From: Candidatus Heimdallarchaeota archaeon
GTDB taxonomy: Archaea > Asgardarchaeota > Heimdallarchaeia > JABLTI01
Reading direction: 5' to 3'
Assembly: GCA_019058275.1 (NCBI GenBank)
Contig: JAHLVW010000103.1
Location: forward strand, 66,186-130,185
DNA length: 64,000 bases
Both the position numbers and the translations under genes were made by a program. The notes below the pieces were generated by a model. It saw only the letters and a program-made list of their open reading frames with translations. It searched no databases and was not told the DNA's origin. Below, in pieces: positions 25,930-52,726 of the stretch; the first letter of the stretch is position 1; each line of letters starts with the position of its first letter.

Positions 25930-27794
25930 TACCATCAGTTTCACAGGTACTATCTTAAGAATTGATTTGTCTCAAGAGAAGATAACTCGAGAGCACCCAG
26001 AGAAGAATTTCTATCGTAGATATCTCGGTGGAGAAGGATTTGTTGCTTACTATTTACTAAAAGAATTACTAGCAAATACCGATCCTTTGAGTCAAGAGAA
26101 TCTCTTAATTTTCGCTGCTGGACCAATAACCGGAACAACAGTATCTGGAAGTAGTTGTAGTAGTGTTGGAGCAAAATCCCCCCCTAACAAATGGGTTTGG
26201 TGAATCAGAAGTAGGGGGTTTTTGGGGCGTAGAACTAAAGAAAGCAGGCTATGATGATATAGTAATTACAGGGAAAGCAAAGAAACCAATTTACCTATGG
26301 ATTCATAACGAACAAGTAGAAATTCGAGATGCCAACAAATTATGGGGAAAAGAAACAGGTGAAGTCCAACAACTACTGAAAAAAGAGTTGAATGATAAAC
26401 AAGTAAGAATGGCTCTAATAGGTCAAGCTGGAGAGAATCTTGTAAGATATGCTTGTATTATGCATGATCTGAGAAATGCTGCAGGGAGAACAGGCATGGG
26501 TGCAGTAATGGGTTCAAAGAATCTGAAAGCAGTTGTTGTTCGTGGAACCAAACGACCTGAAGTTGCGGATAATAAGAAAATCAATGAATTTAGAAAAATC
26601 ATGAATGATGTTTACCTAAAGAATCTCGAACATTTTTCACTTCTGGGAACTGGTGGAGATAGAATGGAATCCTTCATCTGGACTGGTAATCTGCCAATCC
26701 ATAATTTCAGAGATGGTGAATTTCCAACTAGAAACAATATTGATCCTCGAACGATGAGGAAAACAATTGGATTGAAAACGGAAGGATGTTATGCTTGTCC
26801 TATTCACTGTAAAAAAGTTGTTGAATTCAAAGAACCGTGGGAAGTAAGCTCAAATTATGGAGGTCCAGAATACGAAGCATTAGGTGCTCTAGGGTCAAAC
26901 TGTGGAGTTGATGATCTAAAAGCAGTTTGCAAAGCAAATGAATTATGTAATGGATATTCAATGGATGTAATTTCTGTAGGAGTAACAATAGGTTTTGCCA
27001 TGTAGTGTTATGAAAAGGGACTTCTCACAAACGAAGAAACCGATGGGTTAGAGTTAACCTTTGGAAATGGAAAAGCCTTAGTTGAAATAGTTGAGAAAAT
27101 AGCTAAAAGGGAAGGCTTGGGTGATTTGCTAGCTGAAGGAGTAAAGCGAGCAGCAGAAAAAATAGGTAAAGGTGCAGAAGAGCTTGCAGTTAATGTTAAA
27201 GGTCTAGAAGTTTCTATGCATGATCCAAGATTAAAGAAAGCTTTAGGATTAGGTTATGCAGTTTCACCTACAGGAGCAGATCACATGCACAATCTTAATG
27301 ATCAATATTTAACAAACGAAACTGCTATAGAGAGATTTGCTCCTCTAGCTATTTATGAAACAATACCCCTTGAAGACATGGGAGCAAAGAAGCTTCGAGC
27401 TCTAATTTACCAAACAAATTGGCGAGTAGTTTACAATTACCTGTTGATGTGTATGTTTCAACCATGGAATTATCGAGAAATAACGGATATTACTCGAGCA
27501 GTAACGGGATGGAACACATCCTTGTGGGAATTAGTGAAAGTAGGAGAACGAGTAACAAATATGGCTCGAGCATTCAATATTAGAGAAGAATTCACAAAGA
27601 AAGATGATTGGTTACATCCAAGATTTTTCCATCCAAAAACCTCCGGTGAGTTATCAGAAACTTCAGTAAATCCTAAGCAATTCGAAATTGCTCGAGATAT
27701 TTATTATAAAATGATGGGCTGGGATGAAAATGGCATCCCAACTAAAACAATACTTGAAGAATTAGATATTAATTGGGTTATAGAGCTATTATAA
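25930..27794 (+). pseudogene. aor: Tungsten aldehyde:ferredoxin oxidoreductase, interrupted
   Basis: ILRIDLS, KSP(L)T, GR.GMGAVMGSKNLKA, C..CP..C, GPEYE; frameshift in C-run ~26178-26184 and TAG at 27003-27005. Confidence 0.88.
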
Positions 27795-29571: not shown

Positions 29572-30731
29572 TCAATAATTTAGAACTAAAATAGTTTTAT
29601 TTATTTTCCTAAAAGAAATTATTTTGTAAGAATAACCCCACTGTTCAATGGTAAATCGCCAACGACTAGCAATCTCTTGTCTTAGATCATCACTTAGAGT
29701 ATGAATATTCGTTTGAAAGTTTTGTTGGGAATACAAATAAGCATTGAAATTTTCAACATTTTCATTGAAGCCAGACAAGTTAAATGTTTGATAGATCTTT
29801 TGTAAGTGAGCAAAAGGGTCTCGGATGAAATCCTCATATTTCATTTCAATGAGATTGCCTTCTGGGATAAGCTCCTTTTCAGCAAAAAACTTCTCATACA
29901 TTTCTTGGTAAACATAGAAGATAATTTCCTTTCTTTCATCATAAGAGAAAGGTCTTTGTAAGATAGTATATGGACTTAATTTTTCGTAAAGAAGATCAGT
30001 GGAAGGAAAGACATCGAAGGGGTTTCGGTAGAGATGGATGAGAATTTTGCTTCAGGAAACATCTCGAGAAGAATCTTAATACGGCAAGTGTGTGAGGGAT
30101 TTTTAAGAAGTAATTGTCTGCCATCGGAACAGTAAGTTAGTTTCTTAAGAAAATTAAGATAGATTTTTTTCCATTTTTTAAGTGATTTCTCTGAAAGAGT
30201 ATTAAGGGTATTAAAGCGAGAATAATGTAGTATTTTCCGGGGAAAGATTAATCCGAGATAAAAAGTATAACGAGAAAGATTGATCATGGCGTGTTCTTCC
30301 TCTTGAGGTTTGTAAACACCCATAGGAATATTATCCATCCTTCTAGTTTTTGGCAAATAACGTTTCAAAACTCGTTTTACTAATCTATCACTACAAAGAT
30401 AGTAGTGGGGCATTAAAGCTTGGTATAGGGAAATATAAGCGAATTGTTTGTCTTGAATCATTAGCGACTGTAAGTAGGTCGTACCACCACGCCAATGACC
30501 TATGATTATGATAGGTGGGTACTTGAGCTCTGTTTTCTTTATCTTCCGACTGTAACGAATCCTTTCAAAAATAATAAGAGGAAAAGTCAAGAAAGTTATT
30601 AGAGTGACAAGAAGTGCTCAAGAGAGATAGCGCCAGCTAATTCGAAAGCGATTCTCAAAGAGTAAAGCTAACCAATTAGTTAGACTTGTACCTGTAATAA
30701 CTTGCTCTGTAATTTTACGATTTTCTTCCAA
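29572..30731 (-). pseudogene. Sulfotransferase family protein, interrupted
   Basis: GHWRGGTT, LLKNPSHT.RI, YRNP, YEDF; TGA at 30618-30620 and frameshift ~30040. Confidence 0.85.
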
Positions 30732-31767: not shown

Positions 31768-32255
31768 GTGTGGTTGAAAAAGGAACAAGGAAACGAAGAA
31801 AAATAGCAATTAACAGCAAAATGTTAATTCCAATACAAACAAAGAATACAAATTAACACTTCCAAGCTCAGACAAAGTATAAATAGAAAAATGAGTACTA
31901 ATAACTTTGCAGTAGGTGTAATCTTTACAATAGGAAGATTTAAAACAGTTACATGCAAAAACAAAACGCTCGTATAGAGCAAAGAAATGCCAAGAAAAAA
32001 TGCTGAAAGAATAAAACTAATTCATCGGTAAGTTTTTAAAAGCAAAAAAATAAGCAAGAAAAGTGCTGTTGGAAGTTTTAGCAAGAAACGACCAAAAAGC
32101 AATTATTAACGAGAAAAAAATTAATTCATTATTGATGCGCTTGGCGAAAATTGAAGGCTCGCTGAGTAAGAGGTAAGAACGACGAGTGCCTCTGACTATG
32201 GGAATCAATAAAAAGAGACCTTAGGTCAGATGCTAATTTTTGTCGTCTTCTTTAC

Positions 32256-32290
32256 TGTAGAAGGCCACACTTCTTCAAGTGAAATCTAGA
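32256..32290 (+). promoter_or_regulatory. 5' arm of the 23S pre-rRNA processing stem
   Basis: TGTAGAA-GGC-CACACTTCTTC-AAGTGAAA-TCTAGA; CACACTTCTTC and TCTAGA pair with TCTAGA-CCTTAAA-GAAGAAGTGTG at 36596-36619 (BHB-like). Confidence 0.8.
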
Positions 32291-34338
32291 TCTCCATAGT
32301 AGGTTCCGACACGCAAACGCCATCTGGTGGATGGATAGGCTTGAGTGCCGATGAAGGCCGTGGCTAGCTGCGATATGCGCGGGGGAGTGGCATGCACACA
32401 TAGATCCCGCGATAGCCGAATAGGAATTCCCCATACGGACCAATAAGCTGTATGACTCCGAAAGGAGAGGGAACGCACCGGACGGAAACATCCAAGTAGG
32501 TGCAGGAAAAGAAATCAACTGAGATGCCCTTAAGTAACGGCGAGTGAAATGGGCAAAGGTCAAACTGAATCCTTGCATGTGAATGTGAGGAGATGTGGTG
32601 TTATGGACTCTTATTAAATTCTACGATGTAAAGCCGAATTTCCTGGAAAGTTAAGCGATACAAGGTGATAGCCCTGTAGGCGAAATAGATCCTAGAAGGA
32701 AAGAGTATCCCGAATAGCGGGGGCTGGAAATCTCTCGTGAATGGGGCACAACGAGCTCCAAACCTAAATACAACTCAAGACCGATAGCGCAATAGTAACG
32801 TGAGTGAAAGCTGAAAAGTAACCCGAAAGGGTAGTGAAAAGTGCCTGAAACCAGATGGTTATAGACGTTTGTGGTCCGAAAGGGTAGATTCTGGATGAAG
32901 TGAGAGCCGGTGACGGCAGGAACGAGTTCAGAGGACCGGGATCACAAGATCCGTCTAGAAACACGGGCCAGGGAGTTTATTCTTGTGGCGAGCTTAAGGG
33001 TTTCTTAGACCCGAAGGCGGAGCGAAAGCAACAAGTCCGCAGCTTGCAAGGGACGTCGTCTGAAAGGGCGAGGAGTCACAGGAGTAAGACCCGAAACTGG
33101 ACGATCTATCCGTGGGCAGGCTGAAGCCTAGGGAAACCTGGGTGGAGGGCCGAACAAGTGTTGACGTGCAATTCACGTTTGTTGACTTGCGGATAGGGGC
33201 AAAAGACCAATCTAGTCCAGTGATAGCTGGTTCCCAACGAAGTGGACATAGGCCAGCCTGATTAGAGATGGTGTGTTTGGTAGAGCAAGGATTTATGGTC
33301 ATGGGGAGTAAAATCCTCACCCATGAGTCAAACTACGAACAGACACATATCATAGAAGATCAGAGTCGGGCGTGCGTGCGTAAGGCACGTGGCCGAAAGG
33401 GGAATAACCCAAACTAAGGTTAAGGACCCTAAATCTCGACTAAATGCTAAAAGAGGAAGGACGTCCTTGCACAAAGACAGTTAGGCGGTAGGCTTAGAAA
33501 CAGCCATCCGCTAAGCAACACGTAACAGTGGACTAACCGAGTGCTTGGGCTCCGAGAATGGACGGGGCTAAGTCGAGTTCCGATACCTCAGGGCACATTG
33601 AAAGATGTGATCCGGTAGTTGGGCGATCTGGTTGGGCGGAAGCAGGGTAGTGATGTCCTGTGGACCGGCCAGATTTGCAGATCCTGGCGGTAGTAACAGC
33701 AAAGAGAGGTGAGAATCCTCTCCGCCGAAAGGGCAAGGTTTTCACGGCAACGTTCGTCAGCCGTGAGTTAGTCGATCCTAAGAGCACTCTTACCTGATGT
33801 GCTCGAAAGGGAAACAGGTTTATATTCCTGTACTGCGTGGATACGTCAGAAGCGGTGACGCAAAGACTGTTTTTTGACGCGACTGGATAGGCTCGGTGAG
33901 GCCATCGCCTCACTTAACTATATAACCCTCCGAAGTACCGTGACGGTGAGAAGGAGGTGAAGGTAGGAATAGGCTACCAATAGTGGTGGCTCGAGTTGTT
34001 TCCACTCGCCCATGAAAAAGAAAATAGTAAGGATTCCACGTAATCGTACCCAGAACTGACACAGGTGTCCCAAGGTGAGAAGCCTAAGGCGTGTTCGGTC
34101 AAAGATGGTGAGGGAAATCGGCAAATTCGCCCTGTAACTTCGGGATAAAGGGTGCCTGTTGGCTTGAAAGGGCTAGCAGGTCGCAGTGACAAGGGGGGGG
34201 CAACTGTTCAATGCAAACATAGCAAACTGCAAGAGCGAAAGCTTGTGAACAGTTTGTGAATCCTGCTCAATGCCAGTAAGTGAATGCCGGGTACAACCGG
34301 TTCAAGCTCTGGTCAATAGCGGGAGTAACTATGACTCT

Positions 34339-35186
34339 TAGCTAAAAAGAAAAATCCTAATCGGGAGTCGTTAAATCTGGCTATATGCGGGAACACCGCT
34401 GAAAAGCACTCCTCAGAAAGGAAAAATGTTCTTTCCAATAGCGACAATCCGCAGGAAATCTGAACAGTCCCCTATCTTAACACAAAAAGAATTTAGAAGA
34501 ATGACCAAAAAAAGAAAGAGATGAAAAAACCATGTTACGAAGAGCAAGAAATCAATCAGCAAAAAACACTTATCTCTGCGGTCTGATCGATGGTGAAGGA
34601 TCATTCAGCATCAGTATCAAACCACACAACACAACAAGATTTGGATGGGTAATAGATCCAACATTCAGCGTAACATTAGAACAAGAAGCAGAGCACGTGC
34701 TCAGAGCACTGCAACAAGCACTAACATGTGGAAGAATAATAACCAAACCTGGACAACCAAACTGCAAACTCTTCATAGAAGAAAGTAGAAGAAACATAGC
34801 AGAAAAAATCATCCCATTCTTCGAACGATACCCTCTAGAAATAAAAACAAAAAGTTTCAAACATTTCAAAGAAGTAGTCGAAAGACTAGAAAACAAAGAA
34901 CACAGAGAAGCAGAAACATTCCTAAGACTAGCAGTATATGCATTCAGTCATAAGGAACACAAAGGAACAAGAAAATACACAATAGAAGACATCCTAGAAA
35001 CCATGAAAAAAAAACCAGAGAACGCAGAAGAAATAGTAAGAAAAGAAATGGAAAAAATAGCGAGAAAAAAACAAGATAGTAGGACATAAGAGATCCCCAG
35101 AGACTATACGCCAGACACCAAACAACTGGTGAGAAACCATGCGCGGTGAAGATATAGTCCGGCGATAATTAATTGAAATATCGTTG
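34339..35186 (+). mobile_element. Group I intron at L1923 (E. coli numbering)
   Basis: Exons rejoin as GACTCT|CTGAAGGTAGCC; IGS GGAGTC; P3 TCTGGC/GCCAGA; P ATGCGGGAA, Q AATCCGCAG, R CAGAGACTATA, S AAGATATAGTCC; terminal G. Confidence 0.9.
34532..35089 (+). CDS. Single-motif LAGLIDADG homing endonuclease (I-CeuI-like)
   Basis: YLCGLIDGEGSF and FGWVIDPTFSVT; IIPFFE.YPL..K; lies between intron elements Q and R. Confidence 0.92.
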   Translation: MLRRARNQSAKNTYLCGLIDGEGSFSISIKPHNTTRFGWVIDPTFSVTLEQEAEHVLRALQQALTCGRIITKPGQPNCKLFIEESRRNIAEKIIPFFERYPLEIKTKSFKHFKEVVERLENKEHREAETFLRLAVYAFSHKEHKGTRKYTIEDILETMKKKPENAEEIVRKEMEKIARKKQDSRT

Positions 35187-35701
35187 CTGAAGGTAGCCAA
35201 ATGCCTTGTCAGATAAGTACTGACGTGCATGAACGGATCAATGACCTCCCCACTGTCCCCACCGTCTACCGAGTGAACCCACTAGCCAGCGAACAGTCTG
35301 GCACCAACCAGCGGGAAGAGAAGACCCCGTGGAGTTTTACTGCAGCCTGTGCCTGTTTTACGGGTAACGATACATAGTGTAGCCAGGAGCGTCGAACCAA
35401 ATTCTCAGGGATTTGGGAAGCAAAAATGAAACACTGGCTTTCGCAGCTTGTATGACTAACTCCTTTCGAGGAGGACAAGTATTGGTGGGCAGTTTAGCTG
35501 GGGCGGCTGCGCTTGAAAAGATATCGAGCGTGTCCAAAGGTTAGCTCAGGGGGGACAGAAACCCTCCGTAGAGTACAAGAATAAAAGCTAGCTTGACAGG
35601 ATTCTTTCCCATAGGGAATTCTGGAACGAAAGTTTGGTCTAGCGATCTGTCGAGACTTCTCGTTGAGGTCCGGCAGCGGCAGAAAAATTACCCCGGGGGT
35701 A

Positions 35702-35890
35702 AGGAGTGATACTAGTGCACGACAGAAATAATATGAAATATTATTATGAAATTCTTTGGGAATAATCAATTAATTACTGATTACCACAGGATTGCTATTT
35801 GTTGGGTAAATTAACTAGCTATTTCTAACATAAAGTAGAATAGTTTGGCGACAGCAAGAAGCATCCAAAGCACTAATACACTCTCCCCAA
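35702..35890 (+). other. BHB-type rRNA intron between positions 2450/2451 (189 nt)
   Basis: Exons rejoin as GGGGGTA|ACAGAGTCGTC; GGGG/CCCC helix with TAA and AAA bulges; inner stem GGAGTG/CACTCT and TAGTGC/GCACTA. Confidence 0.85.
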
Positions 35891-35917
35891 ACAGAGTCGT
35901 CGCAGGCGAGAGCTCAC

Positions 35918-35986
35918 CAGCTCTCCAGAAACATGTTACCGCTGATTAAAGAAACGATCTAGGTTCACGTTCTGGAGGCAGAGTAT
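35918..35986 (+). other. BHB-type rRNA intron after position ~2477 (69 nt)
   Basis: Exons rejoin as GAGAGCTCAC|ATCGACCC; GCTC/GAGT helix with ACC and ATA bulges; stem CTCCAGAA/TTCTGGAG. Confidence 0.82.
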
Positions 35987-36074
35987 ATCGACCCTGCGGC
36001 TTGCTACCTCGATGTCGGCTCTTCCTCTCCTGGCGCCGCACAAGACGCCTAGGGTAGGGTTGTACGCCCATTAA

Positions 36075-36117
<43 letters not shown>

Positions 36118-36168
36118 ATTCTTTCTACTGGTTGTGCTGGGAAATTGAGGGTAGGGCCGGGTCGGTAC

Positions 36169-36230
36169 ATCGTACGAGGTGTACGCTCAGAAGCTACAAG
36201 CAATAGTTTAGTAGCCTCTTACGAGCCAAA
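36169..36230 (+). other. BHB-like rRNA intron in the sarcin-ricin loop (2658/2659, 62 nt)
   Basis: Exons rejoin as GGTAC|GAGAGGACC; stem TCGTACGAGG/CCTCTTACGA; ACA and AAG bulges. Confidence 0.82.
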
Positions 36231-36357
36231 GAGAGGACCCCCCCGTCGGCGCCTCTAGTCTACCGGTTGTCTGATAAGGCATCGCCGGGCAGCCACGCGC
36301 CAAGCGATAACAGCTGAAAGCATCTAAGCTGGAAGCGCGTCCTGAAACGAATTTCCC

Positions 36358-36479
36358 ACTCTGGCGACAATTTGGAAAGGTTTGGATTCGCATGCTGAGC
36401 GAATCTGTTTTACAATCACTATGTTTCGTTGGACTTTTCCATGCATGGGGCTGGTGACAGCAACGTGTCGTCGTTAGAC
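36358..36479 (+). other. Enlarged expansion segment ES39 (H98 region)
   Basis: ~120 nt between TTTCCC and GAAGG; closing stem TCTGGCGAC/GTCGTTAGA; internal hairpin GGATTCGC/GCGAATCT. Confidence 0.75.
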
Positions 36480-36579
36480 GAAGGTACGGATACAAGATCC
36501 GTTTGAAAGGCCTGTGGTGTACGCGTCGAGTCTTCGGGCGAGATGCTCAGCCAGCAGGTACTTAACACCTAAGCGTGTC

Positions 36580-36619
36580 ATTACCGAAATGGACTTCTAG
36601 ACCTTAAAGAAGAAGTGTG
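36580..36619 (+). promoter_or_regulatory. 23S 3' trailer with processing-stem arm (resident copy of the array repeat)
   Basis: ATTACCGAAATGGACTTCTAGACCTTAAAGAAGAAGTGTG pairs with 32266-32290. Confidence 0.85.
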
Positions 36620-36666
36620 AGTCCGAGCATCAATCATGTTTATAAAACTAGGGGGAAAAAATTCGT

Positions 36667-37407
36667 TTGACTACTGTAGAAGTTAAACAAGAACTGGGAT
36701 TAAGAAATAATCGAATTTTAGAAATCAAAATTGGATTTATCTTACTTGTTGTTTTCACTTGTTTATCTGTTATCTCTGCTATTCTATTCATCAATCATTT
36801 ATGGTCTTCGAATATTGATTTACAATATAGTGTTGTATTTGTCTTTGAACTTATCAAATTAATTCTCATTACTGTTGTTGCTTTTATGTTTTATTTAGGC
36901 TTTTCTAAAATTATCCATCTATTTCAAAAGAAATCCAAACATACAATTCTTTTCCTTAAGATAACCTTTTCAATTTATCTAGTCGTATACTTTGTTCTTT
37001 CTTTTATCTATCTTATTTATTCCTTTGATAATATTTCCAGTGAGAATGTTGCAAATCTCTTAGGTAAGGATCTTGTTTCCATGCTTGTTTTGATTATCCT
37101 TTTCCTTTTGCTTAGTATTCTACTCCAGAGAGAATTCAGAACTCTTAAATCCCGTCTTTTTCTTTCTTTCCAATCACTTCTTACTTTCTTAATCATCCCT
37201 GCCACTTTTGCTTGTATTTTTCTCTTTACATATAATGACTATGCTCGACAGATAAATGATAATTGGCACTTGTACTTTATCATTGAAACTCAAATTGGTT
37301 TGTCTTTCTTCTTCTTTTATTCCCTTGTCGTTGTTGTTTCTTCAATTATCTTTTTATTCTTCCTCAATCGTGTATCGGAACAAGTTTCTCCTTATTCGGA
37401 CTTCTAG
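36667..37407 (+). CDS. Multi-pass membrane protein (cassette 1)
   Basis: About six TM segments; the stop TAG lies inside the following repeat. Confidence 0.75.
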   Translation: MTTVEVKQELGLRNNRILEIKIGFILLVVFTCLSVISAILFINHLWSSNIDLQYSVVFVFELIKLILITVVAFMFYLGFSKIIHLFQKKSKHTILFLKITFSIYLVVYFVLSFIYLIYSFDNISSENVANLLGKDLVSMLVLIILFLLLSILLQREFRTLKSRLFLSFQSLLTFLIIPATFACIFLFTYNDYARQINDNWHLYFIIETQIGLSFFFFYSLVVVVSSIIFLFFLNRVSEQVSPYSDF

Positions 37408-37448
37408 CCCTTAAAGAGGAAGTGTGTGCAGAGATTCTACATTTTTTT
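37398..37448 (+). repeat. 23S 3'-trailer repeat
   Basis: GGACTTCTAGCCCTTAAAGAGGAAGTGTGTGCAGAGATTCTACATTTTTTT. Confidence 0.92.
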
Positions 37449-38130: not shown

Positions 38131-38172
38131 ACCTTAAAGAAGAAGTGTGTGCAGTGATTCTACATTTTTTTT
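38131..38172 (+). repeat. 23S 3'-trailer repeat
   Basis: ACCTTAAAGAAGAAGTGTGTGCAGTGATTCTACATTTTTTTT. Confidence 0.92.
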
Positions 38173-38174
38173 CA

Positions 38175-38656
38175 TTATTTTGTATAAGTTTCAAATAGAT
38201 TCCAAAAAACTTCTCTTGCTTTTTTCAATCCCTTATCAAAATAAACAGCACCAATTATTGCTTCTAAGCAATCAACATACAATTCATCGGATATTAACCA
38301 CTGACTGGTTGTAAGTCGATTTTTACTCCAAATACATAATCTGCTAAATTTATTTTTTTAGCTATTTTAACTAGATTTTCATTGTCAGTATATTTTTTCT
38401 TGAATTTTTTCATTTCATGTTTTGTTTTCAAATCTTCTTGATAACCTCTTTCTATTGCTAAAAAACCAATTAATGCATTACCAACTTTTTCTAAAGAATC
38501 TTGATTAATTCCATTCCATTTGAAATCTACATCTGAACAATCTTTTGTTAGAAGAGCTTTCATAAGTAAAACTCTATTCTTGAATTTGCAATCAATTTTT
38601 GTCATTAACTCATCCATTTTTCCTAATCTATCTTCTAAAATCATTGTTTTCGCCAT
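38175..38656 (-). pseudogene. RNase III catalytic-domain protein (no dsRBD), frameshifted
   Basis: F.N..LL.KAL, NQDSLEKVGN, N.NL..IA..INL.DY; shifted frame gives DCLEAIIGAVYFDKG; the shift is in a T-run. Confidence 0.75.
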
Positions 38657-40794: not shown

Positions 40795-40816
40795 TAGACC
40801 TTCAAGAGGAAGTGTG
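40795..40816 (+). repeat. 23S 3'-trailer repeat (core only)
   Basis: TAGACCTTCAAGAGGAAGTGTG. Confidence 0.8.
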
Positions 40817-40878: not shown

Positions 40879-42189
40879 TTATTTGTGTTTAGATTTATGA
40901 CGTTTTCTGGCAACAAGAAGCATTAGTATTGTAAAGCTAGAAATTGAAACAAAGAAAGTAAATCTTGGTGTCGCTTCATATTCTAGAAGATCATATTCAT
41001 GGACATACTCTCGAAGAAGTTCGCATATTGTGTAGCATGCGTCCCTACCTTCATCCATGCCTTGATTCAAAAATGTGATTACTCCATAAGGAACAGATGT
41101 ATTTCCATCATAAAAACCATACGCTTTTGTGTGATAAGCCCAGGAATCCCCTTCTGTACCTCCCCAACCACCCCATTGTATAAGTGGATCCCATGGTGCG
41201 AGCCATGCAGTTTGCAGCTCAACCATTATTTGTAAGGTCTCTTCTTCTAAGATTCGTGTTCCGTTAGAAACGCCATTATGTAAGAATACAAGTAAAAATT
41301 TCGCTAAATCAAAAATATTGGATCGTAATCCACCACATCCATAATTTATCTGATTATAATGAGGATAGGCTTTATTTCCAGTGGATCCTGGATCTAGTTC
41401 AAACATGTAAATGTAAGGAATAGCAAGTTGAGTTAGCTCAAAATCAGTATAATTATACCCAGTATTATCCATCCCCAAAGGATCATAGATGTTGTGTTGT
41501 AAATATTCCCAGATTGGTTCTTCTGAGATTAGTTGTATTAGGTAACCTAAAACATCATAACCAAAATTAGAATAGACTCGAGTAGTCCCGGGTTCGTAAG
41601 GAGTCCAGACAACTGGGTCGTATAATGATCCATTAGGTGTAAGATATCCCTCTATCCAATTAGGATAAGGTAACCAATCAAATGGATTTTCCCACCCTAA
41701 CTCTTGGAGTACTTCCTCCATTACTCCAAACCAATACATGTCTGAATCTTTACTTAATCCGGATGTATGTTGTAGAAGCATTTTGATGGTTATTGGAGTA
41801 TTTGTGTAGTTGGGATGTCGGAAAGAAAATGGCAAATAATCATTAACGTCATCCTCTAATTGAATCACTCCTTGGTCATACAGCTGGAAAATAGCTGTTG
41901 CAGTAAAGGTTTTAGTAACGGAACCAATCATGTAAATAAGATCAAGTTCTTGTTGCTCTCCATATCCCTTAGCCCAGATAATTGAATTATTTCTAATAAC
42001 AGCAGAAGTAACAGACGGAATATAGGTTTGTTCCATAATATCTAATATTTGATCATCCACTTGGGGGTCAAATACCGGTAAGCAAGTTTCTTCACTTGAA
42101 CCATTTGAATTAGTAATTGGTTTTATCAAAATACTTGTTAGAATAAGCAATAGAAATAGAATCGGGCTCTTTTTTCTCATTTCTCTCAA
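40879..42189 (-). CDS. Serine hydrolase, beta-lactamase family, membrane-anchored
   Basis: GSVTK (SxxK), LL.HTSG, YSN, C-terminal TM. Confidence 0.9.
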   Translation of the reverse strand: MREMRKKSPILFLLLILTSILIKPITNSNGSSEETCLPVFDPQVDDQILDIMEQTYIPSVTSAVIRNNSIIWAKGYGEQQELDLIYMIGSVTKTFTATAIFQLYDQGVIQLEDDVNDYLPFSFRHPNYTNTPITIKMLLQHTSGLSKDSDMYWFGVMEEVLQELGWENPFDWLPYPNWIEGYLTPNGSLYDPVVWTPYEPGTTRVYSNFGYDVLGYLIQLISEEPIWEYLQHNIYDPLGMDNTGYNYTDFELTQLAIPYIYMFELDPGSTGNKAYPHYNQINYGCGGLRSNIFDLAKFLLVFLHNGVSNGTRILEEETLQIMVELQTAWLAPWDPLIQWGGWGGTEGDSWAYHTKAYGFYDGNTSVPYGVITFLNQGMDEGRDACYTICELLREYVHEYDLLEYEATPRFTFFVSISSFTILMLLVARKRHKSKHK

Positions 42190-42317
42190 TTCCTGTTAGA
42201 TTAATAATGCCAATTAATCCTATTTTTCAATAGCACAAAAACCAATATAAACATTCTCAAATTCGTGAGAATCAATTCTGAAAAACTATTTTTTCTTCTA
42301 ATCCGTTTATCCTTATA

Positions 42318-42390
42318 CTTCAGCGTGTCCTTCCCGAATCGTACTTCTAGCCCTTAAAGAAGAAGTGTGTGCAGGGATTCTACATTTTTT
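42318..42390 (+). repeat. 23S 3'-end/trailer repeat
   Basis: CTTCAGCGTGTCCTTCCCGAATCGTACTTCTAGCCCTTAAAGAAGAAGTGTGTGCAGGGATTCTACATTTTTT. Confidence 0.93.
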
Positions 42391-42540
42391 GACAAGTTAC
42401 ACTTTATTATACATGATATAGAAATATGAGTAATTAATTTTTTAATGAATAAAAAATATATTTGATATAGAAAGTGTGAACTCAAGTATCATTTCTTTAA
42501 TTGCTTGTGTTCGATTCTTTTCTGATGAGGAGTTAAAATT

Positions 42541-44328
42541 ATGAAAAGTGATAAGGGATTATGTACAAAATGTGACAAGGAGCTATGGGCTTCAAAAAAC
42601 GAATTGATTTGTCCAAACTGTAATAATTGGATTGATATTTCTGATGAAAAAATAGAACATTTTCAAAATTCAATAGATCTAACAAAACAAGAAATGAGAA
42701 AATTATTTAATGAAATTAGTTTCAATTTATTGTTAAAAAAATCAATAGACAAATTGGAATATGCAGCTAAGCGATTTTTGCTATCAAAAAACAATCTGGA
42801 GAATAGTTTATATTTAGTTAATGAATGGATCAAATTTTCATTAAATTTATTTTTAATATTTGATTTTCAAAAATCAACAAATTACTCGTTTCCAAATAGT
42901 GATACCAATTTGTTATTTTATTTTATTGAACTTGATAAATTTGCTAAGGAGTTCATTAAATTATGTAAACTTCATAAAAAAAATTTACATATCTTTAAAG
43001 ATGGAAATAAAGAAATTTCTTTAGTTCCTCCATCAAAACCAATCTTTACAACACCCCTATCAGTTCTCCAAATTCAAGCTCTTAATGCTGATTTAAATGT
43101 AGATATTCAATCATTAAAATCAATTACTAATTATTATTCTTTAATTGATACTAACTATTTTCCAACTCAATTTTTTAGACTAATTGGTATTTATTTATCA
43201 AATGGAATAGGTTTAGCAAAATACCTTATCACTAACAATAAAAATGAAGCAATAAAATTAATAGATTTATATTCTAAACTTCACAAAAAACTTGCTAAAT
43301 TACCTATAAAAAATACACATGTATTCACAAAAGAGAATTTTATAAAGCTATTTAGTAAAAAGACTTTAGAAGAAATGCTATTCTTTAGCAAAAAAGCAAA
43401 GTTTTCCTATAAAAATAGCATTAATTTTATACCAAACATTTTCCTAGAACTCTCTAAAAATCATGAAAAATCAATTCTTCCATTATTTTTTTCAAATAGA
43501 TTATTTGAAGAAATTCTACAAGCCAAAACTGATACTAAAATAATAGGAGAAGTTGCTACATTAAAAGGAATTTCTTTTGAGGATGAATTGTTTGGTTATT
43601 GTGAAACTCTAAATGTTGAAGGTGAATTTAATGGGCAGAAATTACTTCGTATTTCTAATCCAAATAAATCCTCAAAAATAAAAGAACTTGCAGATATGAT
43701 ATTTATTGGTAATAAAACTGGTTTTATCTATATAATTTCTGCAAAGTCACATACTGTTCTAACATTGAAATCATTGCACAAAGAACTTATTAAATATCAT
43801 CAAGAACAAAATCAAATTGAAGTAGGCTTAAAACATCTAGGTATCGATAATGATAAAATTCAATGGCTATTCATAACACCATTAACTTGGATACCATCAT
43901 TTAGAAACATTAAGATTTTTGATGTTATTCAAATGCTTGGTTTTTTAGCTAGTAAGGAAGGAATAAAAAAAATAAATTTGCACAATAAAGATGAAACATT
44001 AAAGCTTGATAATTTCGATAAATATGATCATTTCAATATTGAAAATAGAAGATTTTGTATTGAAATATGTAAAATTATTGACATAGATAAGAATGAATTG
44101 AAATTATGGATACAAAAACCTCAAATATATTTCGCGGAAATAAATGTAATAGTTCCTGATTTCTTAGATACTAATCATTTAAAAGTTGGTCAATGGATTA
44201 AGATTTTATTTGAATATAGAACTAAATACAGTAAACAAATTATATCTTATCATGAAGCAGAAATTTTATCTGAAGCTAAAGCATATAGTATTTTATTGAA
44301 AAGAAAAATTCTACCACCATATCCTTAA
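42541..44328 (+). CDS. Hypothetical protein: Zn ribbon plus possible PD-(D/E)XK/NERD-like domain
   Basis: CTKC...CPNC; G..FE..L, ELADMI, IISAKS. Confidence 0.55.
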   Translation: MKSDKGLCTKCDKELWASKNELICPNCNNWIDISDEKIEHFQNSIDLTKQEMRKLFNEISFNLLLKKSIDKLEYAAKRFLLSKNNLENSLYLVNEWIKFSLNLFLIFDFQKSTNYSFPNSDTNLLFYFIELDKFAKEFIKLCKLHKKNLHIFKDGNKEISLVPPSKPIFTTPLSVLQIQALNADLNVDIQSLKSITNYYSLIDTNYFPTQFFRLIGIYLSNGIGLAKYLITNNKNEAIKLIDLYSKLHKKLAKLPIKNTHVFTKENFIKLFSKKTLEEMLFFSKKAKFSYKNSINFIPNIFLELSKNHEKSILPLFFSNRLFEEILQAKTDTKIIGEVATLKGISFEDELFGYCETLNVEGEFNGQKLLRISNPNKSSKIKELADMIFIGNKTGFIYIISAKSHTVLTLKSLHKELIKYHQEQNQIEVGLKHLGIDNDKIQWLFITPLTWIPSFRNIKIFDVIQMLGFLASKEGIKKINLHNKDETLKLDNFDKYDHFNIENRRFCIEICKIIDIDKNELKLWIQKPQIYFAEINVIVPDFLDTNHLKVGQWIKILFEYRTKYSKQIISYHEAEILSEAKAYSILLKRKILPPYP

Positions 44329-44375
44329 TTTTTAGCTTTGAATCTTTTTTAAATGTATTTCATTGCCAAAATAAC

Positions 44376-44418
44376 CTCCTAAACTTTAAAGAAATGTATG
44401 CAGAGATTCCACATTTTT
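44376..44418 (+). repeat. Degenerate 23S trailer repeat
   Basis: CTTTAAAGAAATGTATGCAGAGATTCCACATTTTT. Confidence 0.7.
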
Positions 44419-44495
44419 CGTTTTTTTATACCTAGTTGTTGTTAGGTTTATTTGAAGAAAAACAAAAAGAAGAACATTACAAAAAATAGATTCTA

Positions 44496-45437
44496 CTAAC
44501 TACTATTCTTTCTAATCTTATCACTTAATTTTTTTATAATAGATCTAATGTCCTTTTTGAAAATTTCAGATGATATTTCTTTGAACATTCTAAACATTAT
44601 TTCATTAACCAGATCAAAGGATTTGTTAACGTAAGAAGAAGTAATTGGAAATCTATCATTTTTCTCATAATTTGTTTCCACTTTTGATTTGAATTTGTTG
44701 TCTATAATACCAAAATTGTGGACTATAATATTCCTCACTTCAATATTTTCTCTTAGCAGTTTTATTTGTTCTTGCGTGAATAAATTTTTAACTTCAGTCT
44801 TTAGTTTTTTACAAATGGATTCCATTAGAGTGTATATATTCCGAGAAACATTTTGTTCAATATGCTTTTCAAGAACCTGTTCTTCAGTTAATTTTTCTTT
44901 AATTTCAAGATAGTTCAATCTAACATGTTTTTTTTGCCATTGCGTAGGTTTTACTTTGTAAATATAGAATAAACAGTCTCTTAAATAAGAATCAAAATAT
45001 GAGAACAGCATTACAAAAGCTTCCAAATTTGATGTCTCTATTAATTCTTTCGAAATTGTATCTCTAAACTTCAAAACCTCTTTTCCATTTACTTTTTTGG
45101 CATCTAAAAAGATAATTGCACTACTTAGCTCTACAGGAGCTATCAGCTTTTCTTCCAATTTTGTTTTACTATCTCCTAATAATTCTAAAATAAACTCATT
45201 TCCTTTAGTCTTCTTAATTTTATATTCTCTCTCAACTATTCCTTGAAATAACTTTGGGATATATTCCAATGGTAATTTCACATCTTCAGAAAGATTCTTT
45301 GGAAAATCAGTGAAGAAATGAGTTGATAGAATTTTTATAAAAAGTAGTTTGTTTATAGCTGATAAGTAATTATTGACTTTAAGAATAAAATCATCATGTA
45401 TCTTATCAGTGTTAATTGTTATGTTATTTGATTCCAA
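44496..45437 (-). CDS. HEPN-like protein
   Basis: RNIIVHN (Rx4H) in a helical domain; upstream FSYFDSYL. Confidence 0.65.
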   Translation of the reverse strand: MESNNITINTDKIHDDFILKVNNYLSAINKLLFIKILSTHFFTDFPKNLSEDVKLPLEYIPKLFQGIVEREYKIKKTKGNEFILELLGDSKTKLEEKLIAPVELSSAIIFLDAKKVNGKEVLKFRDTISKELIETSNLEAFVMLFSYFDSYLRDCLFYIYKVKPTQWQKKHVRLNYLEIKEKLTEEQVLEKHIEQNVSRNIYTLMESICKKLKTEVKNLFTQEQIKLLRENIEVRNIIVHNFGIIDNKFKSKVETNYEKNDRFPITSSYVNKSFDLVNEIMFRMFKEISSEIFKKDIRSIIKKLSDKIRKNSS

Positions 45438-45559
45438 ATAATCACCTCTCCCATGAACAATCTCATAGAGTAAAATAAGCGTTTCTTTTTTCTCTTCAAT
45501 AATTTCCTTTCCTTCTATAATCTATTTAAAAATTATAATTGGATCATTAACAATTCCTT

Positions 45560-46489
45560 TTATGGTGGTAATACTCCTGTTGATAACAATCCTACAAAAA
45601 TTAAACTAACTGTTGAAACTAGACCAAAAACAATAGCTAGAATTGCTACCCATGTTCTCATTGAGTTCTGAACACCAGTAATCCTTTGATTCGTTATATC
45701 AATTTGTTTTTGCAATCCTTCTTTTCTTTCATCAGTAATCAAAAGATCAGATTCTTGTATTCGTTTCATAATCTCATTATATTTCCTCTCAGCGATACTT
45801 GTACTTAGTTTAATTCTTTCATCAAAATCTGTTTTTAATGAATCCAAATGTATTTGTAATTCATCCATTCCAACAGATTGAAACTTCTGTTGTAGATTTT
45901 GGAATTCACCCTCAATTTTATACTTTAATGATAACTCAGCAAATCTTTCTTCTTCTAATGAAGTTAGTTTATAATTTTCTTTCATTTTTGAAAGAATTAT
46001 AAGAGCTTTACTTTCTCTTCCCTCAATTACCAATAATTTAAGCAGTATTTTTACTGAAAGGATGTTTTCATGTTCCCATAGTTGTTCTCTAAAATCCTCT
46101 AAGAATTCTTCCCCAACATTCTCTAGCAATCTTAATGCAAAATAGCAGTAATCAGCTTCCTTCATTAAATTAATTGACGCTTGAATTGTTTCCTTTTTTT
46201 CTAGTAATAATCTATTCTGATTTGGATTATCAATTTCATCTTCAGGAATGTCTTTTGTTAATACTTTGTATACAGCTTCTTCTGATAATGATTTTTTGAT
46301 AAAACTAGCAATAATTGTATTTGTTAAACTCATTTTCTTTTCTTCTTTATCTAAAGGATGTACAACAAGTAGTGCTTTACCCTTTGAATAATTTAAAAGC
46401 ACATATTTCCTTTTTTCGTCAATAATTTTCTTGATTAAATTAATTCGTACTTCAACATCAGACATTTCCTTTTCCTCAAAAAACAACAC
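45560..46489 (-). CDS. Coiled-coil protein with C-terminal TM
   Basis: Charged helical body, hydrophobic C-terminus. Confidence 0.6.
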   Translation of the reverse strand: MLFFEEKEMSDVEVRINLIKKIIDEKRKYVLLNYSKGKALLVVHPLDKEEKKMSLTNTIIASFIKKSLSEEAVYKVLTKDIPEDEIDNPNQNRLLLEKKETIQASINLMKEADYCYFALRLLENVGEEFLEDFREQLWEHENILSVKILLKLLVIEGRESKALIILSKMKENYKLTSLEEERFAELSLKYKIEGEFQNLQQKFQSVGMDELQIHLDSLKTDFDERIKLSTSIAERKYNEIMKRIQESDLLITDERKEGLQKQIDITNQRITGVQNSMRTWVAILAIVFGLVSTVSLIFVGLLSTGVLPP

Positions 46490-46804
46490 TATTAATTCTA
46501 AATAAGTATTTCTTTTTCTTATTATCTGATTATTCTCTTTAGGTTGATATTGTTTTCCAAGATTTTTTGCTGTTTATATACAAAATTCAATATTACTAAT
46601 TAGAACATTATAAATTTGTAAGGTAAATTTACTTTCAGTACACTCCCTACGAAAAGTACTTTTAGCTAAAAACGTGTCTCCGTTCTTTTCTTCTGCCATT
46701 TGTCCTTGCTTCCAGCTAGTGTTCTCTAAACACTAATCTATTAGTCACGACAAAATAAAAAGACCACAAAAAAATAAATAATGAAAATCTAGTATGTTAA
46801 ATGG

Positions 46805-47353
46805 GTGATTTTTATGGAGTGGGATCTATTTCTGGATATAGAAACTACAGGACTAAATAGCAAAGATGAAATTATATTAATTAGTTTGCAAAATGGAATA
46901 AATGGCAATCATGAGAAGCTTCTTTCTTGGGAGTCAAACGAGAAGGTTATATTGGAGGAATTATTACAAAGAATCATTGCATTTCCATCTAGTGGTAATA
47001 AAAAACCACAAATAATTGGTTACAACACCTTAAAATTTGATATTCCCTTTATTATCTGTAGGTGTATCTATTACAAAATCCGTTACTATAGTGAACTATA
47101 TACGATTTTTTATCGAGATTGTTGGCATATTGATCTCTTACAAGTCTTTATGTCAAGAAACAATTTCTTTTATCAAAAATGGAATAACATCCTCAAAGCA
47201 TATGGTTTTCCTGCTACAAAAGGCAGAGGTAGTGATATACCAGATTGGTATAAGAATCAGGAATTTGACAAAATTCTTACTTATGTAGATAGTGAGTTTA
47301 AATATATGCCTTCTATATTTAGCAGATTGAAATCAGGAGATTTTCGCATTTGA
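46805..47353 (+). CDS. DEDD 3'-5' exonuclease (DnaQ/PolB exo, RNase_H_2-like)
   Basis: LDIETTG, GYN..KFDIPFI, HIDL, Y...E. Confidence 0.85.
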   Translation: MIFMEWDLFLDIETTGLNSKDEIILISLQNGINGNHEKLLSWESNEKVILEELLQRIIAFPSSGNKKPQIIGYNTLKFDIPFIICRCIYYKIRYYSELYTIFYRDCWHIDLLQVFMSRNNFFYQKWNNILKAYGFPATKGRGSDIPDWYKNQEFDKILTYVDSEFKYMPSIFSRLKSGDFRI

Positions 47354-47566
47354 TTCATATTATAATGAAGTGGAAGATTAATTTCAATTGAAAATAGAAG
47401 AGAAATGCCATTTAAAACAATGAATAAATATTGGATTCATGAGCATCATTTAAAGTTAGTGGATTTACTTCATATCAATTAGACACTAATAATTACGATG
47501 ATTTTTTTCTACTTCTAATTTAATACTCAATGCTGATAGAATCAGGGATTTATTAGTTTAAAATTA

Positions 47567-48664
47567 TCAGATATTCTTTAATGGTGAAATTTGACAAATC
47601 TCGAAAAATTCACATGATTTACATTTCCATTTTTTAGGTGCTATTGGTAATTCTCTATCAATTTTTTCGAATTTTAATAACAGGTCATTAACATTTTCTT
47701 TATTGATTTCCTCTTCCCATGTTTTTGTTAGACCACTATCTCTTAAATAAATTTGAACTCTTTTATTATTTCTATTGAAGAAAAATCCATATAAATCTGC
47801 TTGTGTAGAAGCAACAGGTTTTACATAGTGTGAAAGAAATTCTGAACCAGTTGTTTTGAATTCATAAACAAATTCATTTGCTATCCCATCAGGTACTCCA
47901 ACTAATACAAAATCTTTCCATTCAAAATTCCATCTAATTGTTGAATATTTTTCAGCTTTAGTTGTTTCTACCATTTCCCCTAAAATTAGTGGATGTTTTT
48001 CTGCATCTATTATTTCAATGTTATTTGATTTTGCTTCTTCAATAATGAATTTCTTTTCATTCTCATCTAAATTTGGATTTACTACTATTTTTTCCACACC
48101 ATTTTCAACAATTATGTTATGAGTTGTTATAATATTAATGTTCTTTTCCACTACATTTCTTTTGTGTAAAATTTTTTCAATATCTTTTAGTGATATTTGA
48201 GAACCAATTTCAAGTAATTCAATAGGATTTTTAGGGATCTTTTTTATATAATCTAATTGAAGTGCATACATTATTCTATCTACTAAATAAGCACCAAAAA
48301 ACATCTCTTCCCCTTCTTTGGATTTGTAATATGATTTCATAGCACACCAGTAGTAGTTTGCTAAATTAGCCATTCCCAGGAATACAAGTTTATTGGCTTT
48401 AAGATTTCTTCTTTTCTTTTCAATCATTAGTAGTTCTAGTAATTTTATTTCAATTGGATTTTTTAGTAAGGATATATCTTGATATGCTAAAGCAATGAAA
48501 AATTTAATTGGATTTTTCCTGAATTGACTAATGAATTCATGGATAATTTCTTTTCTTACATTAAATTTTTCTTCTACGTTTCTAAATGATTCTTTTTCAA
48601 AAAAATATGATATCCAATTACTAATTTGTTTCAAATTAAAATTAATACTCATTTTTATCCCCAC
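47567..48664 (-). CDS. Cas4-like PD-(D/E)XK nuclease with Fe-S cysteines
   Basis: YYWC; GVPDG, EFKT, Q...Y; CKSCEFFEIC. Confidence 0.8.
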   Translation of the reverse strand: MGIKMSINFNLKQISNWISYFFEKESFRNVEEKFNVRKEIIHEFISQFRKNPIKFFIALAYQDISLLKNPIEIKLLELLMIEKKRRNLKANKLVFLGMANLANYYWCAMKSYYKSKEGEEMFFGAYLVDRIMYALQLDYIKKIPKNPIELLEIGSQISLKDIEKILHKRNVVEKNINIITTHNIIVENGVEKIVVNPNLDENEKKFIIEEAKSNNIEIIDAEKHPLILGEMVETTKAEKYSTIRWNFEWKDFVLVGVPDGIANEFVYEFKTTGSEFLSHYVKPVASTQADLYGFFFNRNNKRVQIYLRDSGLTKTWEEEINKENVNDLLLKFEKIDRELPIAPKKWKCKSCEFFEICQISPLKNI

Positions 48665-49201
48665 TTTTAAAATAAAAAAATTATGTAATAAATATTATTG
48701 ATTTAATGTTTATCTGATGTTCTTTATCTTATTTCTCATTCTTTAAGGATGTTCAAAATCTACTTTCTCTACGAAATTATTAATATTATTTTTTCAATCA
48801 ATGTACAATTAATCTATTTTTGTTGGATCTTTTGGTTTACAAATTATTGATTATTCCAAGATTTTAAAAAATAAATTCAATCAAAAAAAATAATGAAATT
48901 GATTAAATACTCTAGACATTCGATAATTGAAAATCCAATTTGGGATTCTTAATAATATCTGAATTAAGCAATAAAAAATAGTTATTTGTTTACCATCCAA
49001 AAAAAACATGAATAAAAACCTTAAACTAACAATTTTTTTCATTTAGATATAAATTATGTTAGTAGATTCATTATGAAATCAATATCCATCTATGATCTTA
49101 ATGAGAGCTCATCTATCTGAAAACATATTTTAGTAAATCTAAGACAACAACACAAATATAAAGCTAAATACACAAAGATAATTTTCAACCAAAGTTATTA
49201 G

Positions 49202-49591: not shown

Positions 49592-49819
49592 TAAACATAA
49601 TTCTTCACTATTTAATTCATTTATGATTAAGTTCTCAACAAGAAGATGCATTTAAATTATGATTTTTATAATTTTTTAATATTTTAAATCATTTCCCATT
49701 TTATTATATACACTTGATATATTAAATTAAAAAATTCTATAATTATTGAATGCCTTATATATACTCCAACAAAAAGTACTTTTAGTCGTTTAAAATAATT
49801 TGAATTAGGTGCATTTTTA

Positions 49820-52660: not shown

Positions 52661-52726
52661 TAATCTTTTGTTACAATTACATAATTATCACTAAAAAATA
52701 GTTCTATCTAGAAATTAAATCATACT

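Follow-up and report, generated by a model that had tools for sequence, protein, structure and literature searches.

A strand of the pre-23S rRNA processing stem as the probable common joint of a cassette array in a Heimdallarchaeota genome

Eukaryotes have their closest known relatives in the Heimdall-group Asgard archaea, and to our knowledge little is known about how these gain genes. The window analysed here, a stretch of 64,000 nucleotides, carries a single 23S rRNA gene followed by spare copies of its own tail. Its features are as follows.

32230 to 32262, + strand: distal leader with GATGCT (32230-35) and TGTAGAA (32256-62), from cofolding
32266 to 32297, + strand: single-copy 5' strand of the pre-23S processing stem, with distal helix CACACTTCTTC (32266-76), AAG.G, AAA (32282-84) and TCTAGA (32285-90)
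32303 to 36584, + strand: the only 23S rRNA gene, with introns (Rfam RF02540, 2339.8 bits)
36589 to 36619, + strand: resident 3' stem strand with inner helix TCTAGA, AAA (36606-36608) and core (36603-36619)
36620 to 36640, + strand: resident tail of class B (AGTCCGAGCATCAATCATG) with eroded T-run, the putative 5' end of cassette 1
36667 to 37407, + strand: ORF of cassette 1, 246 aa
37398 to 37448, + strand: first spare junction; arm with two changes, core, class A tail TGCAGAGATTCTACA and T7
38133 to 38171, + strand: spare junction whose core is perfect and whose 23S-like left part has decayed; class A tail and T8
40800 to 40816, + strand: spare core (CTTCAAGAGGAAGTGTG) with a tail of no class
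42294 to 42390, + strand: spare junction; 23S-like part, arm, class A tail
44391 to 44418, + strand: degenerate core and class A tail
52721 to 52843, + strand: about 110 nt of 23S-like sequence, decayed arm and core, no recognisable tail
53823 to 53919, + strand: spare junction; 23S-like part, CTTCAAG-variant arm, class A tail
56262 to 56299, + strand: spare core and class A tail, inner arm decayed
56883 to 56899, + strand: spare core with its own tail (GGAACAGCTCC), conserved with the downstream cas2-family cassette
57546 to 57645, + strand: spare junction with class B-like tail and T6; 81 nt match the resident copy at 96% identity
58469 to 58638, + strand: longest spare copy, with ~150 nt of 23S-like sequence before arm and class A tail
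61888 to 61984, + strand: spare junction with class A tail
62542 to 62638, + strand: spare junction with shortened class A-like tail

The genome contains one full 23S gene, with no second full copy detected by nhmmer, and the leader arm is also single copy genome-wide. The repeat unit is a copy of the 23S 3' end together with the 3' arm of the processing stem. A window scan with the 29-nt arm GGACTTCTAGACCTTAAAGAAGAAGTGTG returned eight matches with three or fewer mismatches, against none expected, and a looser core retrieved 13 copies in the window and at least 53 in the genome, where there are also further decayed copies. The genomic copies sit on contigs C98, C35, C38, C75, C80 and C99 and are co-oriented within each array; the sole exception, on the opposite strand, lies on C98 at a position before the window. 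The spare copies align to the last 50 to 170 nt of 23S plus the trailer, and the more than 50 units are spaced at 0.4 to 10 kb, so that partial 3'-end copies of a stable-RNA gene lie there as direct repeats. The preliminary description of this DNA had identified the leader-pairing arm as the best-kept part of the repeat. This was confirmed and could be narrowed to the distal half of the arm, CCTTAAAGAAGAAGTGTG, with an information content of ~1.7 bits per position compared to 1.15 for GGACTTCTAGACC, 0.6 for the tail and 0.44 for the 23S part. Among copies retrieved via the 23S part alone, and hence sampled without regard to the core, divergence from the resident copy was 0.09 in the core, 0.13 in the inner arm and 0.18 to 0.25 in the 23S part. 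Some cores are perfect next to a decayed 23S-like part, as at 38149.

The core is followed by tails of two recurrent classes. Class A consists of TTCTAC(A) and an oligo-T, and its TTCTACA is indeed complementary to leader TGTAGAA at 32256-32262, as described before. The statement that most repeats continue in this way holds in the window (9 of 13 spare copies) but not genome-wide (23 of 52). The resident tail had been taken for unrelated sequence, but AGTCCGAGCATCAAT (36620-36634) belongs to the recurrent class B, whose consensus is AGTCCTGAGCATCA followed by T-rich sequence. Class B stands behind 17 to ~23 spare copies here, is the resident tail of the sister species G009, and prevails in G005, G007, G004 and G003. 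One of these spare copies is that at 57546, which had also been called unrelated along with those at 40795 and 56877; the latter two tails do fall in no class. In the cas2-family cassette, the tail is conserved with the cassette and a conserved promoter-like block lies ahead. A T run of at least five within 45 nt was found in 34 of 52 tails. The resident copy lacks an oligo-T, as originally noted: no T run of five or more occurs for 538 nt past the core, and the first T7 is at 37442. The T-run of the resident class B tail has eroded.

The resident trailers of the genus are of TTCTAC type in G008 and G010 and of class B in G000 and G009. The leaders of G008 and G010 carry compensatory changes matching their TTCTAC-type trailers, and a compensatory A-U to U-A swap was found between leader CCACAC/CCTCAC and trailer GTGTG/GCGAGG. 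The spare copies follow the helix version of their host, with CGAG in 16 of 18 copies in G010 and TGTG in 18 of 22 in G005. Tail classes assort freely with left-part types. Hybrid tails joining classes A and B (GCCGAGCATTCTACGG in G009 and GCCCGAGTATTCTACAG in G000) suggest, as far as sequence can tell, that the two may be alleles of one trailer; if the hybrids are taken so, the notion of a displaced ancestral tail may be oversimple.

The resident arm and the leader can form a bulge-helix-bulge (BHB). In the BHB register, AAA at 32282-84 and AAA at 36606-08 flank a central AAG.G/CCTT helix with one extra U. This register has an energy of -29.1 kcal/mol, compared to a minimum of -30.6 in another register, and its geometry is near-canonical, not canonical. 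The leader GTAGAA is kept in five of six leaders of the genus, with a shifted compensatory pairing in G010, and cofolding indicated leader GATGCT (32230-35) as a possible partner of class B AGCATC. The ligated form, ...GGACTTCTAGACCTT-AAA-TCTAGATCTCC..., was found in eight JGI records, which stem from congeners, not from this genome, and are 87 to 90% identical to this 23S. They read GACCTT-AAA-TCTAGA, without introns, and the 23S 3' end is fused to the 5' end exactly at both AAA bulges. The cut and join site of the 5' strand is upheld by these records. No match to the ligated form was found in 185,579 species genomes or in the DNA of this genome; since it is absent from the genome assemblies searched, the premise of a BHB ring holds. 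The genome also encodes two EndA-family proteins (PF01974; C96 and C11) and one RtcB (PF01139; C48).

We then compared 152 units in 46 array stretches from nine genomes of the genus. Pairs of shared cassettes (at least 80% identity) were few and partly non-independent (triplets). At their upstream junction (n=7), identity was 0.37 in the left part, 0.95 in the core and 0.82 in the tail, whereas at their downstream junction (n=16) it was 0.76, 0.91 and 0.44, respectively; in random unit pairs, identity of the left part and the tail was 0.52 and 0.40. Tails thus accompany the cassette that follows them and 23S-like parts the cassette that precedes them, with the switch point inside AAGAAGAAG(TGTG). 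Whole cassettes are exchanged at a core shared by the repeats, as in integrons. The earlier suggestion that GAAGTGTG marks a junction is therefore supported by a switch inside the core; that class A preceded class B at the resident site is tentative. Because tails are linked to the downstream cassette, the resident tail is best interpreted as the 5' end of cassette 1. This cassette lacks homologues, and its ownership of the tail is thus an extrapolation. Other breakpoints lie in the 23S-like part at about -45 to -55, in the T-run or away from any unit, and these are more in keeping with general homologous recombination or gene conversion than with a strict site.

We consider it probable that the repeats are composite junctions of a cassette array behind the single 23S gene, that exchange occurs inside the core, and that the resident arm alone is needed. 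The observed parts of this reading are the anatomy, the linkage pattern and, in congeners, the ring junction. Each junction would comprise the 3' end of the upstream cassette, a decaying 23S-like piece of variable length; a 13-17-bp core, (CTTA)AAGAAGAAGTGTG, corresponding to the distal 3' strand of the pre-23S processing stem directly 3' of the BHB cut; and a class A or class B 'replacement trailer', which forms the 5' end of the downstream cassette. The class A trailer would lengthen the stem by pairing with leader GTAGAA. At each insertion at the resident site, DNA exchange inside the core would keep the 23S gene and the stem strand; 23S would gain the tail of the incoming cassette, and the former tail would shift one place downstream. 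In this genome, the resident tail would be the class B one brought by cassette 1 and the displaced tail the class A one at 37427-37448, the latter being best read as a putative former occupant of the resident site. At the RNA level, the resident arm and the leader would form the BHB, and 23S would be cut in both AAA bulges and ligated. We infer this direction and order of insertions, and also that tails stay trailer-like because they must serve 23S when first. The exchange could be performed by a recombinase in trans or by short-homology recombination. Pfam scans of the array ORFs and of the ORFs upstream of the leader revealed no recombinase on the array contigs or beside the leader, which weighs against the reading.

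With the resident terminator eroded, the sequence makes it possible, if rather doubtful, that 23S transcription reads through and expresses cassette 1 in the manner of an integron Pc promoter, as previously proposed. The cassette 1 ORF encodes a membrane-like protein of 246 aa with no Pfam family, and its TAG stop falls inside the next arm. The 538 nt free of longer T runs are consistent with readthrough, since elsewhere T6 to T8 occur within 20 to 45 nt (G008, G009, G010 and behind most spare copies). So are GGGGG 10 nt before the TTG start and the position of the sole TATA-like element, TTTATAAAA (36639-47), too close for a Shine-Dalgarno-led mRNA; this element, however, could drive a leaderless mRNA from the TTG. 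Several T4 runs, beginning 97 nt downstream, are a further point against readthrough. Readthrough is plausible, on this reading of the sequence, for cassette 1 only. A general Pc-like mechanism fails on the terminator-like T runs of 34 of 52 tails and on the antisense third of the flanking genes; 29 of 42 downstream genes are co-oriented, and the array is not a set of promoterless co-oriented cassettes behind one upstream promoter.

Classical island accretion is an improbable alternative to the composite-junction reading. Large integrase-bearing elements would have entered the 23S 3' end one after another and duplicated the entire trailer each time; the small cassettes would be decayed remnants, classes A and B mere alleles, and the core without present function. 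Direct repeats of the 3' end of a stable-RNA gene, a hallmark of such islands (tycheposons, 10.1101/2020.12.28.424599), are present. The variable left boundaries of the 23S-like part and the hybrid tails linking A and B also agree with accretion, as do six tyrosine and two serine recombinase genes elsewhere in the genome. However, none of the six PF00589 matches in the genome lies on C98, C35, C38, C75, C80 or C99, and no integrase or integrase fragment was found in ~112 kb of arrays. Neither an IntI-type tyrosine recombinase beside the array nor a tycheposon-type element-encoded integrase beside the attachment site was seen. Accretion also sits poorly with more than 50 units only 0.4 to 10 kb apart, with a core better kept than its flanks, and with the recurrence of the same cassettes beside different neighbours, switching in the core.

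It is very unlikely that the spare arms act at the RNA level, pairing with the leader by readthrough or in trans to give alternative BHBs, 23S+cassette rings or cassette RNA ends, and hardly more credible is the corollary that such use would keep the core conserved. All 11 distal pairs with the leader are kept in 11 of 11 intact spare arms of the window, eight of which retain at least five of six inner pairs, and three class A-tailed copies cofold with the leader at -37 kcal/mol compared to -35.9 for the resident. Many spare arms could thus pair as well as the resident one, but there is no sign of use. The BHB pathway operates in the genus, and the spares carry the host's helix variant, although a need for recombining sites to match would predict host-specific cores equally well. 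The ring premise of the preliminary description stands, but its alternative rings were not seen, because all eight joined records have the resident-type arm, with TAGACC and AAA, whereas about one third of the array arms read TAGCCC or TAGTCC and many CAA; the four records with long upstream sequence run into genuine 23S. Since assemblies drop rare forms, this absence is weak evidence. Of the 52 spare copies, 11 mismatch at four or more of the 12 inner-helix positions needed for a BHB and only 7 have an exact arm throughout; the T runs of five or more on 34 of 52 tails also speak against such use. Extra 23S+cassette rings are structurally possible but unsupported here, and a core far better kept than the inner helix calls for no BHB function in the spares. 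Were cassette or readthrough RNAs with a spare arm to pair with the unique 23S leader and be cut and circularised by EndA, accessory RNA would be tied to rRNA synthesis, which we think most improbable; the same low likelihood attaches to such pairing in cis or with an excised leader fragment made once per ribosome. If true, the overlap of DNA exchange core and RNA stem strand would be functional.

If the composite-junction reading is correct, the more than 50 cassettes of an array with no linked integrase are all joined through a strand of the rRNA processing stem, and each of them seems to supply the rRNA gene with a trailer and terminator in reserve. This would be a new landing-site logic, in which the anchor is protected because the ribosome needs it. 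The array further offers a natural experiment in how rRNA matures, in which a single leader faces dozens of competent partner strands. As contigs of such genomes break at the 23S tail, there is a practical warning for their assembly.

Archaeal BHB pre-rRNA stems (PMC7038931, PMC7714728, PMC12918454) share with this locus the EndA and RtcB genes, a leader-trailer helix with two 3-nt bulges (here predicted and near-canonical) and, in congeners, 23S ligated exactly at the bulges. In contrast to them, the central helix has one extra U, and spare genomic copies, more than 50 in number, exist of the 3' strand but not of the 5' strand, a combination that we did not find described in the literature searched. 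Integron arrays, including sedentary chromosomal integrons, integrase-less CALINs and archaeal integrons (Ghaly et al. 2022, PMC9668308), are similar in their long one-directional series of small accessory-gene cassettes, which recur beside different neighbours, and in the composite junction of a cassette end and the next start around a common core. However, the site here is a copy of the 23S tail and stem strand rather than an attC hairpin; three units folded as DNA on both strands gave z of -0.2 to +0.9 against shuffles. IntI is missing, the anchor is an rRNA gene instead of attI and Pc, one third of the genes are antisense, and most junctions bear terminators. In tycheposons and related islands at tRNA and tmRNA genes (10.1101/2020.12.28.424599), serial 3'-end insertion likewise leaves partial copies as direct repeats, and newer arrivals push older ones outward. 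Here, by contrast, the target is the 23S rRNA gene, the units are single cassettes with no element-borne integrase, and exchange would take place outside the mature RNA, in the trailer stem strand. The tails go with the incoming cassette and resemble trailers with terminators, and the part replaced, outside mature 23S, would be the trailer and terminator.

The genome (4.1 Mb, 32% GC, Heimdall-group Asgard archaeon) has a single 23S rRNA gene, and nhmmer found no second full copy:

32303-36584, sole 23S rRNA gene of the genome

Behind this gene lie many same-strand copies of its last 50-170 nt plus the 3' processing-stem strand. The 29-nt arm has 8 matches in the window at three or fewer mismatches, against 0 expected. 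Cores (the 13-17-nt distal 3' stem strand) number 13 in the window, the end of which is the contig end, and 53 in the genome, on the window contig (C98) and five others; extra decayed copies exist beyond this catalogue. The cores are co-oriented within each array, except for a single copy on the opposite strand, which lies before the window. The leader (5') stem strand is single-copy in the genome. Two minus-strand units with TTCTAC-type (class A) tails were also located at 55120-55190 and 56990-57040 of C98, ~11 and ~9 kb ahead of the window. Separated by 1.85 kb, they precede the 23S gene by ~45 kb, and one adjoins the end of a gene with homology to cassette ends on another array contig (C38) and in a congeneric genome (G005); the pair is either a detached small array or a piece that was transposed.

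The best-kept stretch of the 52 spare copies, a catalogue built with the core pattern, was CCTTAAAGAAGAAGTGTG, with ~1.7 bits per position, compared to 1.15 for the inner arm, 0.6 for the tail and 0.44 for the 23S part. Conservation was rechecked on 16 copies found via the 23S part only, and their divergence from the resident copy attached to the 23S gene was 0.09 in the core, 0.13 in the inner arm and 0.18-0.25 in the 23S part. At 38149, the core is perfect although the adjoining 23S-like part has decayed. Across the genus, spare copies often carry a CTTCAAG variant, with C as the first base of the bulge (~12 of 17 in G010 and about half in G005; 53882-53888 and 40800-40806 are examples in the window), which none of the five resident copies and none of the eight ligated RNA junctions shows. 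The variant could be a sign of sites borne by cassettes, or it could disarm the bulge-helix-bulge (BHB). The resident-type unit (36598-36620) also carries stop codons in every one of the three frames, namely TAG in TCTAGA, TAA in CTTAAAG and TGA at the joint of core and class B tail, and the cassette 1 ORF (36667-37407) terminates at the TAG of the following arm.

Two recurrent classes of tail follow the core. Class A, TGCAGTGATTCTACA plus T6-8, stands behind 23 of the 52 spare copies genome-wide and 9 of the 13 in the window, and its TTCTACA is complementary to TGTAGAA of the leader. Class B, which leads into T-rich sequence, stands behind 17 to ~23 spare copies here and is dominant in several sister species; the resident tails of this genome and of G009 belong to it. 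The preliminary description had the resident copy lacking the tail and switching to unrelated sequence. A terminator is missing, as no run of at least five T occurs for 538 nt after this copy, but the tail, AGTCCGAGCATCAAT, is a class B member and not unrelated. T6-8 lies within 20-45 nt in other class B tails and in the resident trailers of G008, G009 and G010. In the G008 and G010 trailers TTCTAC faces GTAGAA of the leader, and the G010 pairing is shifted and compensated: leader CCTCAC and trailer GCGAGG, versus CCACAC and GTGTG here, represent a U-A to A-U swap. The host helix variant is also found in the spare copies (16 of 18 in G010, 18 of 22 in G005). In G003, GTAGAA has been lost from the leader and the spare copies have B-like tails. 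Hybrid tails connect the two classes, either of which may be ancestral. We infer that the tail of the first-placed cassette becomes the 23S trailer and terminator, which would keep tails trailer-like.

A division of the classes into terminator and promoter modules was rejected, since the two do not differ in the strands of their flanking genes. A pairing partner of class B was too weak to claim, the only match being 6 bp (GATGCT/AGCATC) and common to this genome and G009. A small hairpin is present in many long tails, followed 55-150 nt on by another core-like motif of degenerate sequence (CTTGAAGAAG..GTG); examples are found at 7768-7840 of contig C80 of this genome, in the G009 resident trailer (L003) and in the G008 and G010 trailers (L002, L004 and L016). 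One shared-cassette breakpoint in G010 coincides with this second motif.

Linkage was examined with cassettes occurring in more than one context, drawn from 152 units in 46 array stretches of nine genomes of the genus. The shared-cassette pairs are modest in number, and some are related to each other.

Identity of unit parts at the junctions of shared cassettes
Upstream junction of shared cassette (n=7): left part 0.37; core 0.95; tail 0.82
Downstream junction of shared cassette (n=16): left part 0.76; core 0.91; tail 0.44
Random unit pairs: left part 0.52; tail 0.40

These identities indicate that the tail belongs to the following cassette and the 23S-like piece to the preceding one, which places the putative exchange point inside AAGAAGAAG(TGTG), the distal stem strand immediately 3' of the RNA cut. 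Both cassette ends would accordingly be predicted within AAGAAGAAGTGTG. The earlier proposal that this motif marks a junction is thus supported by linkage, with the junction lying inside the motif instead of after it. Also in keeping with it are the perfect core at 38149, the free assortment of tail classes with left-part types, and the lack of attC-like folding described below. Some breakpoints fall outside the core, at the T-run or within 23S-like sequence, which suggests an additional role for ordinary homologous recombination or gene conversion. The mutual information of species and base at each unit position increases only rightward of GAAGAAG; it could not place the junction, because resident left parts are identical between species. 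The cas2 family, with its own degenerate upstream unit and ambiguous tail linkage, was replaced as evidence by the larger pair set. The cassette 1 and cassette 2 proteins had no encoding contigs on record.

The array contigs yielded neither a tyrosine or serine recombinase nor a Y1 transposase, and no recombinase was found beside the leader. A 228-aa ORF just upstream of the leader was discarded as a linked enzyme, because relatives do not keep it at this position. None of the units tested folds into an attC-like hairpin. Exchange may proceed by an enzyme or else by short-homology recombination.

Pairing between the leader and the resident trailer can form three helices: a distal one of 11 bp, a short central one and an inner one of 6 bp (TCTAGA/TCTAGA). 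One register leaves an AAA bulge on each strand (32282-84 and 36606-08); this BHB register has -29.1 kcal/mol versus -30.6 for the MFE, and the central helix has one extra U. The predicted ligated product, ...GGACTTCTAGACCTT-AAA-TCTAGATCTCC..., was present in eight public metagenome records 87-90% identical to this 23S, in which the 23S 3' domain runs directly into its 5' end. This pattern was absent from 185,579 species genomes and from the DNA of this genome; the best reading of the joined records is therefore 23S of congeners, derived from RNA after splicing and circularisation. They agree with the circular 23S known in archaea, including Asgard (PMC12918454, PMC7038931). All eight are without 34338-35186, 35703-35986 (bar a 26-nt piece) and 36169-36230. 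The missing stretches fit a group I intron, a pair of BHB introns flanking a micro-exon, and the intron of 62 nt in the preliminary description, although intron-less relatives could also be the source of the records. This genome has two EndA genes and one RtcB gene. Cutting at the AAA bulges, as previously suggested, thus holds for the genus, as judged from congeners.

Readthrough from the 23S gene into cassette 1 is plausible from its context: an eroded terminator, an SD-led ORF with little promoter space, and the next T7 at 37442. As a general mode of expression readthrough was rejected, given a run of at least five T in 34 of 52 tails and about one third of neighbouring genes antisense. Alternative RNA rings of 23S plus cassettes had also been proposed, and structure permits them: in the window the distal helix is retained by all 11 intact spare arms, and several match the resident arm in folds with the leader. 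However, a resident-type arm is used in every one of the eight joined records, which continue into genuine 23S where long enough; one fifth of the spare copies have a decayed form of the inner helix that a BHB needs; and the conservation pattern contains nothing that would require these copies to function as RNA. These observations weigh against such rings.

The largest block between repeats, 42391-52660, contains defence-like genes:

38294-38656, RNase III-like ORF just upstream of the block
40879-42189, beta-lactamase-fold protein just upstream of the block
46805-47353, DEDD/RNase H-fold exonuclease, defence-like
49820-52660, Schlafen/AlbA_2-TPR protein, defence-like

An aldehyde:ferredoxin oxidoreductase gene (26163-27794) and a sulfotransferase gene (29572-30590) each appear to be split into two adjacent ORFs, which could reflect frameshifts, pseudogenes or assembly errors.

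The array layout works like that of integrons, described in archaea (PMC9668308), and of tRNA-gene islands or tycheposons (10.1101/2020.12.28.424599), but the defining features of either system failed here. No description of such an arrangement was found in the literature searched. This analysis adds a linkage test within the genus, the division of tails into two classes with the resident one assigned to B, and the records of ligated junctions.
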